Assembly: GCA_951406725.2 (NCBI GenBank)
Contig: OX597816.1
Span: 49,166,001-49,230,000, forward strand
Length of the DNA: 64,000 bases
Source: Octopus vulgaris
Taxonomy: Eukaryota
Reading direction: 5' to 3'
This document shows, one piece after another, positions 3,430 to 60,139 of the stretch (positions are counted from its first letter, which is position 1; the number at the start of each line of letters is the position of its first letter). The notes below the pieces were generated by a model. That model did not search any database. It was not told the DNA's origin and saw only the letters and a list, made by a program, of their open reading frames with translations. The position numbers and the translations under genes were made by a program.

Positions 3430-4960
3430 ATCAGTAACTATTTGATCGATCAAGAAGAATGAAAAGAAGAGCTGACAGCTTCAGGAATTAAATTCAGAAC
3501 TTAAACAACCGGAATAAATACCATGAGTCATTTTTCCGACGCTCCAGCAAAAAATACTGGTTTCAAATTTTGGCACAAGGCCCGCAACTAGTGCATATTA
3601 CATGGACTCCGGTGCTCAACCGTTACTTATTTTTATCGACGCTGCAAAGATGAAACACCAAAAATCTTATATTTTTCATTTCTTATACTAGTTCCATTTA
3701 ATAACTGTTTATCATGTCTCTGCTTTTCGTAATTTAAAATATATTCTACGGAAGCAACTGTTGAGTTAAATGTCGGACAAACAACAGTGGAATTTGAACT
3801 AAGATGCATAAAGACAGGCGGAATACAGTTAAGTATTTTAGCCAGGCGCAGTAATGATTCTTATTTCTTTATTGCTCACAAGGGGCTAAACACAGAGGGT
3901 ACAAACAAGGACAGACAAAAGGATTAAGTCGATAAGATCGACCAGTATGCAACTGGTACTTAATTTATCGACTCCGAAAGGATGAAAGGCAAAGTCGACC
4001 CCGGCGTAATTTGAACTCAGAACGCAAAGACAGTCGAAATACCGCTAAGCATTTCGCTCGACGTGCTAACAATTCTGCCACCTCGCCGCCTTAGAATCGA
4101 ATAATATTGGTTTCAAATTTTGAGGCAAGCCCAGAATTTCGGGGGCAGGGGAGTAAGTCTATTTTATCGACTCCAGTGCTCAACTATTACTTATTTTTAT
4201 CGACGCTGCAAGGATGAAACACACAGTCAGCCTCGGCGGAATTTGAACTAGCAACATATGGGCGGACGGAATGCGGAGAATCATTTTGACCGGGTGCAGT
4301 AATGTTCCTAGCATCTCGCTGCCTTAGGAGCGAATAATAATCCTTTCTGCTATATGCACAAGGCCTGAAAGTTTGGGGGAAGGGGCAAGTCGATTAGATC
4401 GATTCCACTACTCAACTGGTACTTAACTTATCGACTCCGAAAGGATGAAAGACAAAGTCGACCTCGGCGGAATTTGAACTCAGAACGTAGCGGCAGACGA
4501 AATACCGCTAAGCATTTCTCCCGGCATGCTAGCTATTCCTATTTCTTTATTGCCCACAAGGGGCTAAACATAGAGGGGACAAACAAGGACAGATAAAGAG
4601 AATAAGTCAATTACATCGACCCCAGCGCGTAACTGGTACTTAATTTATCACCACCGAAAGGATGAAAGGCGAAGTCGACCTCGGCGGAATTTGAACTCAG
4701 AGCGTAACGGCAGACGAAATACCAATTTCTTTACTGCCCACAACTGGCTACATACAGAGGGGACAAACAAGGACAGACAAAGGGAATAAGTCGATTACAT
4801 CGACCCCAGTGCGTAACTGGTACTTATTTAATCGACCCCGAAAAGATGAACGGGAAAGTCGACGTCGGAGGAATTTGAACACGGAACGTAACGGCAGACC
4901 AAATACGGCTACCCATTTCACCCGGCGTGCTAACGTTTCTGCAAGCTCGCCGCATTCCTT
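3430..4960 (-). mobile_element. Head-to-tail array of SINE family B copies (tRNA head plus Meta/MESC-like core)
   Basis: Repeated gaaaggatgaaaggcaaagtcgacctcggcggaatttgaactc core, which contains a B-box-like gagttcaaattcc on the minus strand. About 7 units of varying divergence. Confidence 0.85.
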
Positions 4961-20887: not shown

Positions 20888-22232
20888 TATTGGTTTCAAA
20901 CTTTGTCACAAGGCCAGCGATTTCGGGGAGAAGTGTTAAATTGATTTCATCGAAACAAATGTTCAACCGATACTTATTTTATCGACCCCTGTGGTCAACT
21001 GGTTCTATTTTTTTGTTGACCCTAATGGTCAATTAGTACTTATCTTATCATTCCCGAAAGGATGAAAAGCACAGGCGAACTCGGCGGCATTTGACCATAG
21101 AAGGTAAAGTCGGTACAAAAAAGACGCTAATTATTTTACCCGGCGCCGTAGCGATTCCGTCAACTCACTCACACTAAATATTCTTTTCTACTGTAGGCAC
21201 AAGGCCCGAAATTTTGGGGGAGGGAGTCAGTCGATTACCTCGACCCCAGTACGCGAATGGTACTTAATTTATCAATCCCGAAAGGATGAAAGGCAAAGTC
21301 GACCTAGGCGGAATTTGAACTCAGAACGTAACGGCAGACGAAACACCGCTAAGCATTTCACCTAGCGTGCTAACATTTCTTATTTCTTTATTGCCCACAA
21401 GGGGCTAAACATAGAGGAGACAAACAAGGACAGACAAACGGATTAAGTCGATTACATCGACACCAGTGCGTAACTGGTACATAATTTATAAACCCCGAAA
21501 GGATGAATGGCAAAGACGACCTCGGTGGAATTTGAACTCAGAACGTAACGGCAGACGAAATAAGGCTACGCATTTTTCCCGGCGTGCTAACGTTTCTCCC
21601 AGCTCGCCGCTTTAATATACATTTTTATATATGTATTTCTTTATTGCCCATAGGAGGCTAAACATAGAGGGGGCAAACAAGGACAGACAAGGGCTTTAAG
21701 TCGATTACATCAACCCCAGTGCATAACTGGTACTTATTTAATCGACCCCGAAAAGATGATAGGCAAAGTGGACCTCGGCGGAATTTGAACTCAGAACGTA
21801 ACGGCAAACGAAATACCTATTTCTTTACTACCCACAAGGGGCTAAATACAGATGAGACAAACAAGGACAGACAAAGGTATTAAGTCGATTATATCGACCC
21901 CAGTGCGTAACTGGTACTTAATTTATCGACCCCGAAAGGATGAAAGACAAAGTCGACCTAGGCGGAATTTGAACTCAGAACGTAACGGCAAACGAAATAC
22001 CTATTTCTTTACTACCCACAAGGGGCTAAATACAGATGAGACAAACAAGGACAGACAAAGGTATTAAGTCGATTATATCGACCCCAGTGCGTAACTGGTA
22101 CTTAATTTATCGACCCCGAAAGGATGAAAGACAAAGTCGACCTAGGCGGGATTTGAACTCAGAACGTAGCGGCAAACGAAATATTGCAAAGTTTTTCTCC
22201 CGGCATTCTAACGTTTCTGCCAGCTCGCCGCT
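20888..22232 (-). mobile_element. Head-to-tail array of SINE family B copies
   Basis: About 6 units. The two units spanning about 21817-22180 are near-identical (period ~184 bp). Confidence 0.9.
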
Positions 22233-31979: not shown

Positions 31980-32805
31980 CGAAGTTATATGAATGTGGAT
32001 TATGGAAAAGGCAAGAGAATACCAAAAGAAGCTGTACATGTGTTTCATCGATTACTCCAAAGCCTTTGACAGCATTGATCATGACAAGTTATGGAAAGTC
32101 TGGAGAAAATGGGAACACCTTTACAGCTTGTCCAGCTTATTAGATCACTCTATCAAAACCAAGAGGCTACAGTACGGACACCATATGGCGACAGTGATTG
32201 GTTTGAGATTGGAAAAGGCACTCGGCAAGGTTGCATCATGTCACCAGCAGCCTTCAACATGTACGCTGAGAAGGTCACGAGGAATGCAGGCCTGGAGGAT
32301 AGTAGCATTGGAGTGAGGATTGGAGGAAGAAATATTAATAACCTTCGCTATGCAAATGATACAACCCTGCTGGCGGAGAGTGGTAAGGATCTGGAGGATC
32401 TTGTCCTGCTGGTCAAGAAAGAGAGTGAGAAATTTGGGCTGTACCTCAATGTTAAGAAAACGAAGATCATGTCAACAGCAGCCACAACTCCTTTTCTACA
32501 AAATAAATCGAGATGGTGACTGCACTCCAGAAATAAGACGGCGGATAGTACTAGGCAGAGAGGCAATGGTCAGCATGAGCAGGGTCTGGAAGAGTAGAGA
32601 CATCAGACTCGCTACCAAATGCAGATTGGTGAATGCAATTGTCTTCCCAATAGCAACATATGGATGCGAGACCTGAACTCTAAAGAAAGCTGACCAGAAG
32701 AGAATTAATGCATTCGAGCTTTGGTGTTGGAGAAGACTTTTGCGGATTCCATGGACAGCGAGACTCACCAATGGAGAAGTTCTTAAGCAGATAAGGCCGA
32801 AAATG
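31980..32805 (+). pseudogene. RTE/BovB-type LINE reverse transcriptase fragment
   Basis: CFIDYSKAFD, GTRQGCIMSP, NNLRYAND (YADD mutated), IVFPIATYGCET, AFELWCWRRLLRIPWT. Frameshifted, and truncated by a SINE at about 32806. Confidence 0.92.
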
Positions 32806-50699: not shown

Positions 50700-50788
<89 letters not shown>

Positions 50789-50906
50789 AATCAAGGAACG
50801 GCCATAATAGGCCATTCACCCACTAGAAATAACAGCCAAAAGCTTTAACCGCAAAATAACATTAATTCCGTAAACCAGGAGAAAATTGAAAAACTTTTAC
50901 CCTGTA

Positions 50907-51013
50907 ATTTCTTAGACGATGCACCGTTTCATCTACCGTTTAATGGTAAACTAACCTGATTAAATTAAATCAAGCCAATCCACCATAGGCCCTTAGACTC
51001 ATCAGTAAGAAAT
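50907..51013 (-). ncRNA. Intact type I hammerhead ribozyme (mirror copy)
   Basis: Reverse complement of 51443-51549. Confidence 0.9.
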
Positions 51014-51442
51014 AGCCAAGTCGGAACAGATATTTTTCACGAGGCATTCCTCTTGCTACCTCGGCAATATCTGACCTAAAATCTTCAAATCGTCGCACTC
51101 GCGCCAAATTTATCGGCAGCAAATAAATATAAGCCACCGATTCCATTACGGAACTAACCAGAAAATTCATAATTAATCAATATAGGGTGGCAAAAAAATT
51201 TTGTAGAATTCTTTTGCCACCAACGGCCAACGTTGGTGGCAAAAGAATTCTACAAAATTTTTTTGCCACCCTATATTGATTAATTATGAATTTTCTGGTT
51301 AGTTCCGTAATGGAATCGGTGGCTTATATTTATTTGCTGCCGATAAATTTGGCGCGAGTGCGACGATTTGAAGATTTTAGGTCAGATATTGCCGAGGTAG
51401 CAAGAGGAATGCCTCGTGAAAAATATCTGTTCCGACTTGGCT

Positions 51443-51549
51443 ATTTCTTACTGATGAGTCTAAGGGCCTATGGTGGATTGGCTTGATTTAATTTAATCAG
51501 GTTAGTTTACCATTAAACGGTAGATGAAACGGTGCATCGTCTAAGAAAT
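51443..51549 (+). ncRNA. Intact type I hammerhead ribozyme
   Basis: Stem I atttctta/taagaaat (8 bp). CTGATGA at 51451-57. Helix II gtcta/tagat capped by a long G-U-rich hairpin. GAAA at 51526-29. Stem III acggtgcatcgt. Predicted cleavage after GUC at 51541. Confidence 0.9.
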
Positions 51550-51770
51550 TACAGGGTAAAAGTTTTTCAATTTTCTCCTGGTTTACGGAATTAATGTTAT
51601 TTTGCGGTTAAAGCTTTTGGCTGTTATTTCTAGTGGGTGAATGGCCTATTATGGCCGTTCCTTGATTGTGATGTTGAACGTAAAAATGGTTTATGACTAT
51701 TTAATTTTTTTCCCACTAGGCCGTTGGTGGCAAAAGAATTCTACAAAATTTTTTTGCCACCCTATATTGA

Positions 51771-51811
<41 letters not shown>

Positions 51812-52230
51812 TGTGTATATATATAAGCATTTTGCCCACTGTGCTAACCTTTCTGCAAGCTTGCCGCCTTACATGCAAGTGGGAATAATAAAGTCAAATC
51901 TTTCACAACATCGATGTATGGTTTGAAATTATTTAATTCACACAGACAGACAGACAGACATACACACACACACACACACACTCCCACGTGTGTTTTACTT
52001 ACGGTGGTAGCATTAGGATTTTGATTTCTGGACCAGGAAATGCATTACGTTCTTGAGTAAAACGTTTCGTTTTACATTGCTGCAGTCTACTCACCTGGCA
52101 AAAATGAGTTATTTTGCGACGGACTACTGTCACGTCCAGGAAGAAATATATACGTCACAATATCTGGGGAAATGTTCTTATGAGCCTATTGCTCACTAGC
52201 TATCTTTAATCTTTTTTTTGTGCGTGTATA

Positions 52231-53140
52231 CGTGGTGGTATCAAAACGTTCCCAGACTAGTTATGTAGTCCGCCAACAGATGGTAGAAGACGGTTGCATG
52301 CATAGTGTGAGGTAGCAGTGATCTCCATGAGGCAGTGACCTCCATGAGGCAGTGGCATTCATGAGGCACTGTGCCGAATGACATTGCTGTGTCTCCTTCA
52401 CGAGTTGGCAAATTTGGGTTTTTGTGATCACGTGCATGATGCAGTTTGCGACTTTTGTTATGGACCGGAAGTTAGAACAAAGGGCCAACGGGAAAGGTTG
52501 CGTTAGACTCGAGAAGTTCGCTACAGAGACATTGCGCATGCTTCGGCAAGCTTTCAGCAACGAGGCAATAGATCGTATGCGATGTTTCGAGTACCACAGG
52601 CGCTTCAAAAGCGGAGGAACATCCGTGGAGGTCTTAGAGCGATCTGAAAGACCTCACACGACTCCCGGAAATGTGGGGAAACTTCATTAGCTTGTGCATG
52701 CGGTTTTTCGGAGGACAATCAAAGACATTGCTGATGTTGCTCTGTGGTAGTGGTGCGGGCAAGCAATGCTAACATCTGGATTCTCCATAACGACAATATA
52801 CCCTCTCGCCGAGCTCTCCTCACTCGTAATTTTCTCTCCACACCCAATCTATTCGCCAGATTAAAGAATCTGCGGACTTCCATTTCTTCTCCAACATGAA
52901 AATGCAACTCAAAGGTCGCCGCTTAACACCGTTGTCGAGATCCAGATCGAATCGTAGGAGGTCCTCGACTCGCTTACGGAAAACGATTTCTAGGACGGAT
53001 CCCAAAAATTGCAGGATAGCTGCGGCCAGTGCATTGTTGTACAAGGTAACTATTTCGAAGGAGATGATGTTAAAACTTAGGTAAATAAATTATTCTTTAT
53101 TAAGCATAACTTAGTCCGGGGACTTTTTGATACCACCACG
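52231..53140 (+). mobile_element. Internally deleted mariner transposon
   Basis: TA|cgtggtggtatcaaaa ... ttttgataccaccacg|TA TIRs with TA TSD. N-terminal MDRKLEQRAN...ETLRMLRQAF...RRFKSGG and C-terminal WILHNDN...FFSNMKMQLKGRR. A 17-bp tandem repeat lies near 52323-52370. Confidence 0.9.
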
Positions 53141-54686: not shown

Positions 54687-54900
54687 AAGCTGGTGAGCTG
54701 GCAGAAACGTTAGCACGCCGGGCGAAATGGTTTGTGCTATTTCGTCTGTCGATACGTTCTGAGTTCAAATTCAACCGATGTCGACTTTAATTTTCATCCT
54801 TTCGGGTTCAATAAGTTAAGTAGCAGTTGCTACTGGCGTCGCTCTAATCGACTAGCCCCATAAAAATTTCGGGACTTGTGCCTAAGAGCAGAAAAGAATA
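54687..54900 (+). mobile_element. SINE family B (short-tail type)
   Basis: Head and core followed by the ttcgggacttgtgcctaagagcagaaaagaa tail. Confidence 0.85.
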
Positions 54901-55280
54901 TTAACCCATTCATATATACATACATTTTACGGGTGTACGTACACATGGTACGTAGTTGTCAATAATTCCTGCCAGTTGTGCGATTTTCTTGACTGGATAT
55001 GCGTATATATGTTTTTATTCTTCCACCCTATATCATTCCCAGCTGTACGAATTACTCACAGCCTACCTGTACATCATAGCTAAACAATTACTACTTGTGC
55101 AGTGCTATTTCTCTGCCTTCACAAAATTGCTGTAGTTCTATGCGGTAAATTTATCACCAGAGTTAAAGAAGATTGTATCAGATATAAGCCAGTTTGAAGC
55201 ATATTGAATACTCTCCGAGAAAACACTATCCTTTTGTAATGAAAATATCCCATGGATACAAACTGCAATATCTTATAGTC

Positions 55281-55686
55281 TAAGGCGTGAGCTGGCCGAA
55301 ACGTTAGCACACCGGGCGAAATGCGTAGCTGTATTTCGTCTGCCATTACGTTCTGAGTTCAAATTCCGCCGAGGTCGACTTTGCCTTTAATCCTTTCGGG
55401 ATATTTAAATTAAGTACCAGTTGCGCACTGGGGTTGATGTAATCGACTTAATCCGTTTGTCTGTCCTTGTTTGTCCTCTCTGTGTAGCGCCTTGTGTGTA
55501 GTAAAGAAATAGGTATTTTGTATGTCTTTACGTTCTGAGATAAAATTCTGCCGAGGTCGACTTTGCCTTTCATCGTTTCGGGGTCGATGAATTAAGTACC
55601 AGTTGCATACTGAAGTCAAGCTAATTGACTGGCCCCCTCCCCTAAAATTTTGGCTCTTGTGCCAAGAGTATAAAAGAAAAGAATAA
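55281..55686 (+). mobile_element. SINE family B dimer inside one TSD
   Basis: A long-tail unit joined at aaagaaatag|gtattttg to a truncated short-tail unit. TSD cttatagtc at 55272-80 and 55687-95. Confidence 0.85.
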
Positions 55687-58892: not shown

Positions 58893-60139
58893 TTAGGTTG
58901 TTTCACATGAAATGTCGTATTTGAAAGGTAACAATAAAATGTTTCAGAAGTGTTAGAGAACTGATTTATTTAATCAACGTATGATCCATGTTCATTTATG
59001 CCGTTTATCCAACGTTTCTCTATGTCATATATTCCATCTTAAAAAAGAAAATTCATCCTTTGCTGTGATAAACTGTCCGAATGCTTCAATTACCTCTCTA
59101 TTTAAGAATGTTTTATTACTTGTGAAAATCTCAGAATGCTTAAATAAGTGATGATCAGGAGGTGAGATATCAGGGGAACAGGGAGAATGTTGCAAAATCT
59201 CATAATTCAGGTTTTGCAACTTTTGGACCGTAGTTTGAGGAGTGTGAGGACGTGCATTGTCGTGGAGCAAAATTGGGCCATCACTGTTCACTAGACTGGG
59301 ATGCTTCTTTTTCAAATTCTCATGCATACAATCAATTTCCTGGCAATACGATGTCATTGTTACTATTTTTTCTTGTTTCAAAAATGAATAATGAATAATT
59401 CCCTTCACAGACCACCATACAGTGACCACTAACTTTTTAGGGTGCAATGGTGGGTCTGGGTAGTGTTTAGATGACTCTCCTGCACCTGGTCACTGTCCTG
59501 TTCTCCTGCTGTTGTCAAGGAATATCCATTTCTCACCACAGGTAATGATTTGATGCAAAAATGGTCTTTTTCCAGTCGAGAAAGTAATAAGGAGCACACT
59601 TCGAGGCGTCTGTTTTATTTTGAATCTCATTCGGCTGATGTGGAACAAACCTATCCGTTTTCTTGTCACTTCCAATTTTTTACAGGTGTGCAAAAGAAAT
59701 TGTGCGAGCTTTGGAGTTCTCAGGAAAGTTTTCGAACGTTTGTTCTCGGATTTTGTTCAATCAATGCATTTAATCCATCATGCCGAATAACTGATTTTGG
59801 CATACTCTTAGTTTATTTTCAAGGCTATCATCTCCTGAACGAGAGCTTTGGAACCATCTATGAACAGTTCTGATGTCAACAAATCCATTACCAAAGACCC
59901 GCTTGATATTTCGTAAAGCTTCTGCGGCAAAGTGACCCAGTTCGTACTCATACGAAAAGATCACTCAACATAGTTTAACTGTTATCATTTTCATAAGGTC
60001 TTTGGGAACGAATTTTGTATACCAATATTGATGGGAAAGAAAACGAGTTAAAATTAAAAGCATGGTGCACATAAGTGAGTATGTAAATCACTTAAATAAC
60101 AAGTAATTAAAATGCAACATTTCATGTGAAACAACCTAA
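58893..60139 (-). mobile_element. Full-length decayed mariner transposon (~1.25 kb)
   Basis: TIR ttaggttgtttcacatgaaatg at both ends. Frameshifted transposase with IITCGEKWI, HPKKLVVTVWWS, ILLHDNARPH and SPDISPPDHHLF. Confidence 0.95.

Follow-up and report, generated by a model that had tools for sequence, protein, structure and literature searches.

The 64-kb stretch of Octopus vulgaris DNA analysed here (the window) contains an insert of 995 bp (50784-51778) between (TA)n tracts. Two arms of 442 nt each, 50784-51225 and 51231-51672, are 100% complementary around the spacer GCCAA, and the right arm is 106 nt longer. The insert contains 1.1 units of a 491-nt repeat on the plus strand, and no stop-to-stop frame of 85 aa or more was found in 50784-51778. 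Its features are as follows.

50700-50785, no strand: left (TA)n target tract of 43 units; AT is common to the tract and the element end
50784-51228, minus: inverted arm without tail, unit 489-491 followed by 1-442; stops at the fixed 'short' end (position 442)
50907-51013, minus: hammerhead motif of the inverted arm, identical to that of the right arm; core at 51005
51226-51230, no strand: joint GCCAA, read directly, with GCC templated (unit 489-491)
51231-51721, plus: full 491-nt retrozyme unit, 37% GC
51235-51270, plus: start-of-unit hairpin (unit 5-40), the 5' base of which is where each arm begins
51373, plus: G at unit 143, private to this locus and carried by each arm (51083 in the mirror arm)
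51443-51549, plus: type I hammerhead motif, CUGAUGA at 51451, predicted cut after 51541 (unit 311)
51673-51778, plus: one-sided 106-nt tail, unit 443-491 plus 1-57; stops at the fixed 'long' end (position 57)
51776-51825, no strand: right (TA)n target tract, following the tail

The original prediction had described a perfect 442-bp palindrome with a 5-nt spacer, and the arms are indeed exact reverse complements, of a length and perfection far beyond chance. The run-on of the left arm past the unit start, which it had also reported, was confirmed, as GCC (51226-51228) matches the trinucleotide immediately preceding the unit start (51719-51721). On the other hand, the placement of the palindrome inside a (TA)n tract is correct for the 995-bp insert as a whole, which sits in the microsatellite, but not for the palindrome itself, of which only the left arm adjoins (TA)n. 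The presence of (TA)n on both flanks makes a target-site duplication unreadable. The two arms start 3 bases apart, at the foot of the unit 5-40 hairpin, and the computed fold of the unit is stronger than that of shuffled sequences (z -5.8). The AA of the joint would fit a short re-copy of unit 2-6 closing on the CG/AACGTT palindrome. Of 384 unit readings, in which overlapping loci are counted more than once, 2 have G at position 143, and this locus is the source of both.

In a motif-and-stem scan of both strands of the window, exactly two type I hammerhead cores were found, at 51451 (plus) and 51005 (minus). They are identical and outward-facing, one in each arm, and correspond to the two back-to-back hammerheads that had been predicted. 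The motif is composed of an 8-bp stem I, CUGAUGA, a stem II with a long inserted hairpin, GAAA, a short stem III, a UGCA loop and GUC. No Rfam hammerhead match was obtained, either at gathering score in the window or at E<=10 in 50700-51850; our guess is that the hairpin of about 55 nt inserted in stem II is responsible. The microRNA-like Rfam matches at the palindrome loop were rejected as hairpin noise. Both core motifs are kept in 400 of 407 extracted family copies, and changes between subfamilies are confined to tolerated sites, namely the free core position (all four bases), GUC/GUA and the UGCA/UAUA loop. Across 33 variants, 97% of the cells pair; covariation is thin, with double-sided changes at two pairs, no more than shuffles give for that measure. 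In the computed minimum-energy fold of the motif stem III is not formed, and the ribozyme fold is about 6 kcal/mol costlier. A weak, palindrome-capped stem III has been reported to function as a dimer (PMC4209133), and the costly stem III of the window motif is in line with this report.

Considering that the window copy has one hammerhead per strand, unit-length RNA could not be released from it, and this copy is probably a dead end. It lacks the two consecutive hammerhead units by which Li et al. define 'active' copies, and many sister arrays have them.

The repeat family, its ends and its joints

A DNA search of the same genome (2.8 Gb in 227 contigs), in which 40 of 997 candidates were scored, gave at least 234 family matches, and full-length units were 97-100% identical. 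The family has hundreds of copies in the genome, dispersed over many contigs and often arranged in head-to-tail arrays, such as one of about 18 units at 17.47-17.48 Mb (G000:C10:17474891-17483680) that ends at the 442 site. Among the matches listed, the closest other copies are about 99.6% identical to the window copy, which supports the earlier view of a very recent insertion.

For a comparison of insertions, the first 60 loci of two end-junction lists and 120 further stretches were taken, yielding 163 distinct insertions on contigs 1-4, each anchored on one fixed end. Ten short loci replaced by longer ones and seven duplicate or incomplete loci were left out, and so were L001-L030, which had been picked for length and are hence biased. 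An inverted structure was present in 139 of the 163 insertions and absent from 24, and since inverted copies have two chances of being sampled, the true inverted share is nearer three quarters by hand arithmetic. TA repeats were also present at the unanchored end, which lies within 22 nt of a TA run in 154 of 162 cases. The original prediction had considered long perfect palindromes unstable. The palindrome is not exceptional in kind within the family, in which the inverted form is usual and persists in numbers, and in which 15 of the 53 inverted insertions compared have no substitution between the arms. Both arms carry a full hammerhead in 50 of 127 inverted insertions, and back-to-back hammerheads are accordingly routine in this family. 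The window copy is the extreme of the family, with long arms, a near-symmetric joint and no mismatch: it is the longest mismatch-free, short-loop palindrome, and the next best among the 163 other sampled insertions has arms of 152 nt.

Divergence was 1.1% between units within a locus, 1.4% between the arms of one locus and 5.4% between loci. The units and arms of a locus thus share one haplotype, which fits copying from a single circle or a uniform multimer and supports the tandem or circular template that had been suggested.

The 3' ends of the family are fixed at unit 442 and unit 57, which lie 106 nt apart on the tandem, and each is fused to TA repeats. Exact junctions of the 442 end with (AT)3 were found at 418 places in the genome and those of the 57 end with a TA run at 670, and the reversed control gave 0 in both cases. 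Among the 127 two-ended inverted insertions, 126 pair a 57 end with a 442 end, where 66 would be expected if the ends were independent; same-type pairs comprise one 442/442 insertion (L199) and no 57/57 insertion. The remaining 12 of the 139 inverted insertions have a non-canonical far end (8), consist of a short remnant only (3) or are cut off (1). The window copy and these 126 sisters combine an inverted copy with a one-sided tail, in agreement with the Penelope-type inverted insertion proposed earlier. The 106-nt tail on one side and the two fixed ends, which that proposal did not mention, carry mechanistic information.

In the 126 insertions, the longer arm can be of either type. The 442 arm lies inside the 57 arm in 69, the reverse is found in 17 and neither arm is nested in 40; in 12 of the 126 the arms share no sequence at all. 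The 127 joints show microhomology (63), inserted bases (53) or a blunt junction (11). Near-symmetric joints, in which the arms start within 10 nt of each other, number 30 of 127 against 7.6 expected and, outside the ribozyme zone, 23 of 108 against 4.7 expected. In 29 of these 30 the tailed arm exceeds the other in length, and in 25 the tail alone accounts for the difference between the arms; the window copy belongs to this symmetric class. Arm stops at unit 485-5, the zone of the window joint, number 12 (a rate of 0.0035 vs 0.0022 overall), a weak excess noticed post hoc. A register test for priming on a single RNA had 4 usable sites, 2 of them in the expected register, with 4 of 8 shared sites coming from one locus with two insertions.

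The arm 5' ends are also heaped near the predicted ribozyme cut. At unit 312-341, a range picked after the first loci had been seen and in which most stops lie 4-25 nt inside the cut, 63 stops were counted, which corresponds to 0.0069 per base traversed vs 0.0018 elsewhere (3.8-fold). Each arm type shows the excess, with 30 stops against 8 upstream and 7 downstream in one and 33 against 5 and 11 in the other. The two types reach the predicted cut after 131 and 237 nt, and one locus (L017) joins unit 312 to unit 312. The pile-up just inside the predicted cut suggests that the hammerhead may cleave in vivo; pausing of the reverse transcriptase at RNA structure could contribute. The predicted cut is crossed by 169 of 223 arms, and most templates were therefore uncut or re-ligated there. 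In a lizard Penelope-like system, the reaction was reported to proceed in vitro without ribozyme cutting, with no RNA read terminating at the site (PMC11167929), and 8 of 9 frog retrozymes were reported to show no cleavage in vitro (Li, Clavereau and Pollet 2026, bioRxiv 10.64898/2026.07.22.740005).

Origin of the palindrome

The palindrome is a copy of a 491-nt non-coding hammerhead repeat, a non-LTR retrozyme. We consider it probable that a Penelope-like enzyme cut a (TA)n tract and that both ends of the cut target primed reverse transcription, using two fixed positions within the RNA that are separated by 106 nt. What can be read directly in the genome is the family and its insertion into (TA)n, the pair of fixed ends with one of them on each arm, and the surplus of arms starting at the predicted cut. 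In the proposed course of events, arrays would be transcribed and the hammerhead would cleave the RNA, at least part of which would be re-ligated into circles or would serve in multimeric form. A Penelope-like protein with reverse transcriptase and GIY-YIG domains would be supplied in trans, and one target end would prime at unit 57 and the other at unit 442. Microhomology would then link the 3' ends of the two cDNAs, so that the arms lie head to head and one side bears a tail. If the template point at which they stop is the same for both, here unit 489 and unit 1, the product would be a perfect palindrome with a tiny loop. A fuller version of this model, which we put forward tentatively and with somewhat more doubt than confidence, is that the enzyme is dimeric, that each (TA)n end primes its own fixed site on one ribozyme-processed and often circular RNA, that tail, inversion and palindrome are one obligate outcome, and that hammerhead cutting is used in vivo.

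The same element and enzyme could also have made the palindrome by snap-back, or self-priming. In this case, a cDNA begun at the 57 site would have halted at the hairpin near unit 1 and folded back on a 2-bp CG; copying would then have run back to unit 442, where the endonuclease resolved it. This would explain the symmetric class, including the window copy, equally well. The arms at this locus start within 3 nt of each other and have a private base in common, symmetric joints are enriched 4-fold with a longer tailed arm in 29 of 30, and in four cases where the tailed arm is several units longer the short arm is its inner part. Self-priming has been proposed for head-to-head palindromes of Penelope (PMC3846280), and tails have been proposed to arise by endonuclease resolution (PMC8557442). 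The window locus alone cannot decide between the two routes, since cDNAs running to a shared break in one RNA and snap-back of one cDNA give a symmetric joint alike. However, the 40 non-nested and the 12 disjoint inverted insertions obey the same end rule and are not makeable by snap-back, so that a second route would be needed. In the 12 insertions with disjoint arms, the arms are not copies of each other, and from this we infer that each target end primed on the RNA, which simple snap-back cannot explain. A shared break in one RNA template, moreover, would yield symmetric joints as well. Accordingly, snap-back appears unlikely to us as the origin of the palindrome, and priming from both target ends is preferred because this one mechanism covers all insertions.

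We regard two further explanations as very improbable. A fold-back artefact of library or assembly, or the homogenisation of real arms by assembly polishing, would account for the perfect identity, including one base found at no other locus, and for the fact that this is the longest mismatch-free palindrome of the sample. Against this, the mirror stops exactly at a family end that recurs at 418 places, the two flanks are not alike, and just one side has a tail, as in 126 other insertions. Contigs of two public runs from separate studies carry at least 15 other family joints of left arm to right arm, and each of the 4 runs compared has contigs over the left flank. No contig spanning 51225-51231 was found in the runs X1, X2, X4 and X5 (about 80 and 76 in 100 of X1 and X5 covered), which gives no verdict because hairpins and single-copy or polymorphic joints drop out; public-run contigs break at (TA)n on both sides of the insert. 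Gene conversion between palindrome arms is known. Inversion after insertion, by recombination or replication fold-back in a tandem array, could thus have been followed by gene conversion that kept the arms identical and carried the private G143 to both of them, with no need for a young insertion. Such an inversion would not put the second outer end at a fixed (TA)n-fused site in 126 of 127 insertions, and the sister copies of about 99.6% identity, among the matches listed, indicate a young insertion anyway.

Relation to retrozymes and Penelope-like elements

Retrozymes, inverted copies, tails and back-to-back hammerheads have already been published. Judged from its sequence, the family has the features of non-LTR retrozymes, namely a type I hammerhead motif, tandem units, absence of coding capacity and a GC content below 50%. 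The metazoan non-LTR retrozymes described in PMC7229834 and bioRxiv 10.64898/2026.07.22.740005 are likewise non-coding, low-GC tandem repeats with one type I hammerhead per unit, highly self-paired and found in Penelope-rich genomes. The unit of 491 nt compares with 150-450 nt in Cervera and de la Pena 2020 (PMC7229834) and 51-972 nt in the preprint of Li et al. 2026. The long hairpin inside stem II is a difference from the retrozymes of these two sources, and inverted copies, tail and (TA)n targeting, which are present here, are not a topic of the text searched in these sources. No homology to the pLTR of a coding element was found in 70 GIY-YIG loci of this genome, most of them from one family and its relatives.

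The family's insertions carry the hallmarks described for Penelope-like elements (PMC8557442, PMC3846280) and were likely made by enzymes of Penelope-type retrotransposons. Endonuclease-bearing Penelope-like elements likewise have an inverted, 5'-truncated copy at the 5' end, a tail at one end only, palindromes at the joint and, in Naiad and Hydra, (TA)n targets (Craig et al. 2021, PMC8557442; Arkhipova et al. 2013, PMC3846280; Cervera and de la Pena 2014, PMC4209133). Paired hammerheads 100-700 bp apart on opposite strands are also reported in Penelope-like elements (PMC4209133), and non-autonomous head-to-tail derivatives like the present family have been described for Chlamys in these sources. 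In contrast to autonomous Penelope-like elements, the family has no ORF for reverse transcriptase and GIY-YIG endonuclease. Its tail of 106 nt exceeds the published 30-40 nt, and the tail of Penelope-like elements is described in these sources as optional or located at either end, unlike the rule seen here in 126 of 127 insertions.

A coding Penelope-like family is present in the same genome, with a 781-aa frame containing RVT_1, a C-terminal GIY-YIG domain and a CX4CXXC linker that resembles the Neptune/Nematis motif (PMC8557442). It is young, with at least 58 scored matches of 88-100% protein identity, many of them without stops, and a 38-nt tail. Its copies (L241-L259, for example L243:3442-5787) have TA-repeat targets and two ends 38 nt apart, and the short end is on the inverted arm in all three inverted copies among 19 family loci. 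A motif scan found no canonical hammerhead in this family, and tblastn of the 781-aa protein against the window gave no match. In the genome scan for GIY-YIG, 150 of 6136 candidates were scored, and a comparison of the 491-nt unit with the coding elements of 70 loci with GIY-YIG, mostly one family and its relatives, gave no significant DNA similarity. The 781-aa family is thus a parallel rather than a proven partner, as it has no sequence in common with the 491-nt unit. Two other leads to a partner were rejected. At L121, a coding copy lies 0.5 kb away from a sister insertion and proved to be a separate insertion with different ends; L121:336-4000 is a second Penelope-like family member, 46% identical and located between TA tracts. 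A further family, 78% identical, is represented by L219, where a hammerhead with a long stem II occurs in either orientation. A shared 18-nt motif (4828 places) belongs to old dispersed repeats and sister non-coding families, with an ORF match in 0 of 20 loci.

Other non-coding inserts were observed alongside the family. Sister (TA)n inserts, some of them palindromic, lie at L263:4450-4760, L218:2300-2900 and L297-L300; they have a common short motif 40-50 nt before the short end and CACCC or TACCC before the long end, and the tail at L263 is about 110 nt. These motifs are possibly common signals for one partner enzyme.

In twin priming by LINE-1, both target ends prime and the products are joined via microhomology, giving a head-to-head inversion; there the second site of priming is variable, and no overlap exists between the arms. 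In the present family, by contrast, each of the two sites is internal and has a fixed position, and palindromes result from the overlap that the arms usually show. Another comparable system is PAc Poseidon, a lizard Penelope-like enzyme that was reported to cut and extend both strands in vitro, with two internal reverse transcription starts bounding the tail (Frangieh et al. 2024, PMC11167929). It shares with the present family an AT-rich target and two internal start sites, and it is predicted to be a dimer. However, no difference in start site between its strands and no need for ribozyme cutting were seen (PMC11167929), whereas in the present family each target end has its own site and starts are over-represented at the cut. 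In the literature searched, with subscription papers and supplements outside the search, we found no statement of the one-end-per-arm rule, of twin priming for Penelope-like elements or of truncation at the hammerhead cut.

The formation of the inverted copy and the tail and the action of the hammerhead in vivo are stated as open questions for Penelope-like elements (PMC8557442, PMC11167929, PMC3846280). The family offers countable constraints, namely one fixed end per arm in 126 of 127 insertions, disjoint arms in 12 and starts heaped at the predicted cut, and a non-coding RNA this short, in which two start sites are defined, would be a simple substrate for tests. If the proposal is true, the family is a genomic record of the mechanism of Penelope integration.

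Possible read-through RNA and neighbouring repeats

In the computed fold, a read-through RNA of the palindrome would form a full hairpin in which the ribozyme is paired with its antisense, as had been expected. Ten public runs presumed to be RNA contained 0.18-0.23 of the sequence words, which speaks neither for nor against expression. In the copied templates no A>G excess was detected that would point to ADAR editing: the 39 locus-wide variants include 7 A>G and 9 T>C changes (p 0.80). Unit-private variants comprise A>G 9 vs T>C 16, and family-level sites, which are not polarised, comprise A/G 25 vs C/T 12. We consider that the palindrome itself is likely an inert by-product; many hairpin-encoding inserts could feed dsRNA pathways if they are read through.

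A Pfam search of 60 of the 117 window frames found no host exon, and the matches above the cut-off were transposon remnants only. Remnants of mariner-type transposases are located at 52382-53089 and 59028-59489 (the Mos1 HTH below the cut-off and Transposase_1 above it), and a reverse transcriptase fragment (RVT_1) at 31993-32516 is likely the remnant of a LINE. Tandem arrays of a SINE-like repeat of 184-232 nt occupy 3926-4906 and 21634-22183 of the window, and related copies are present at 54693-55630.
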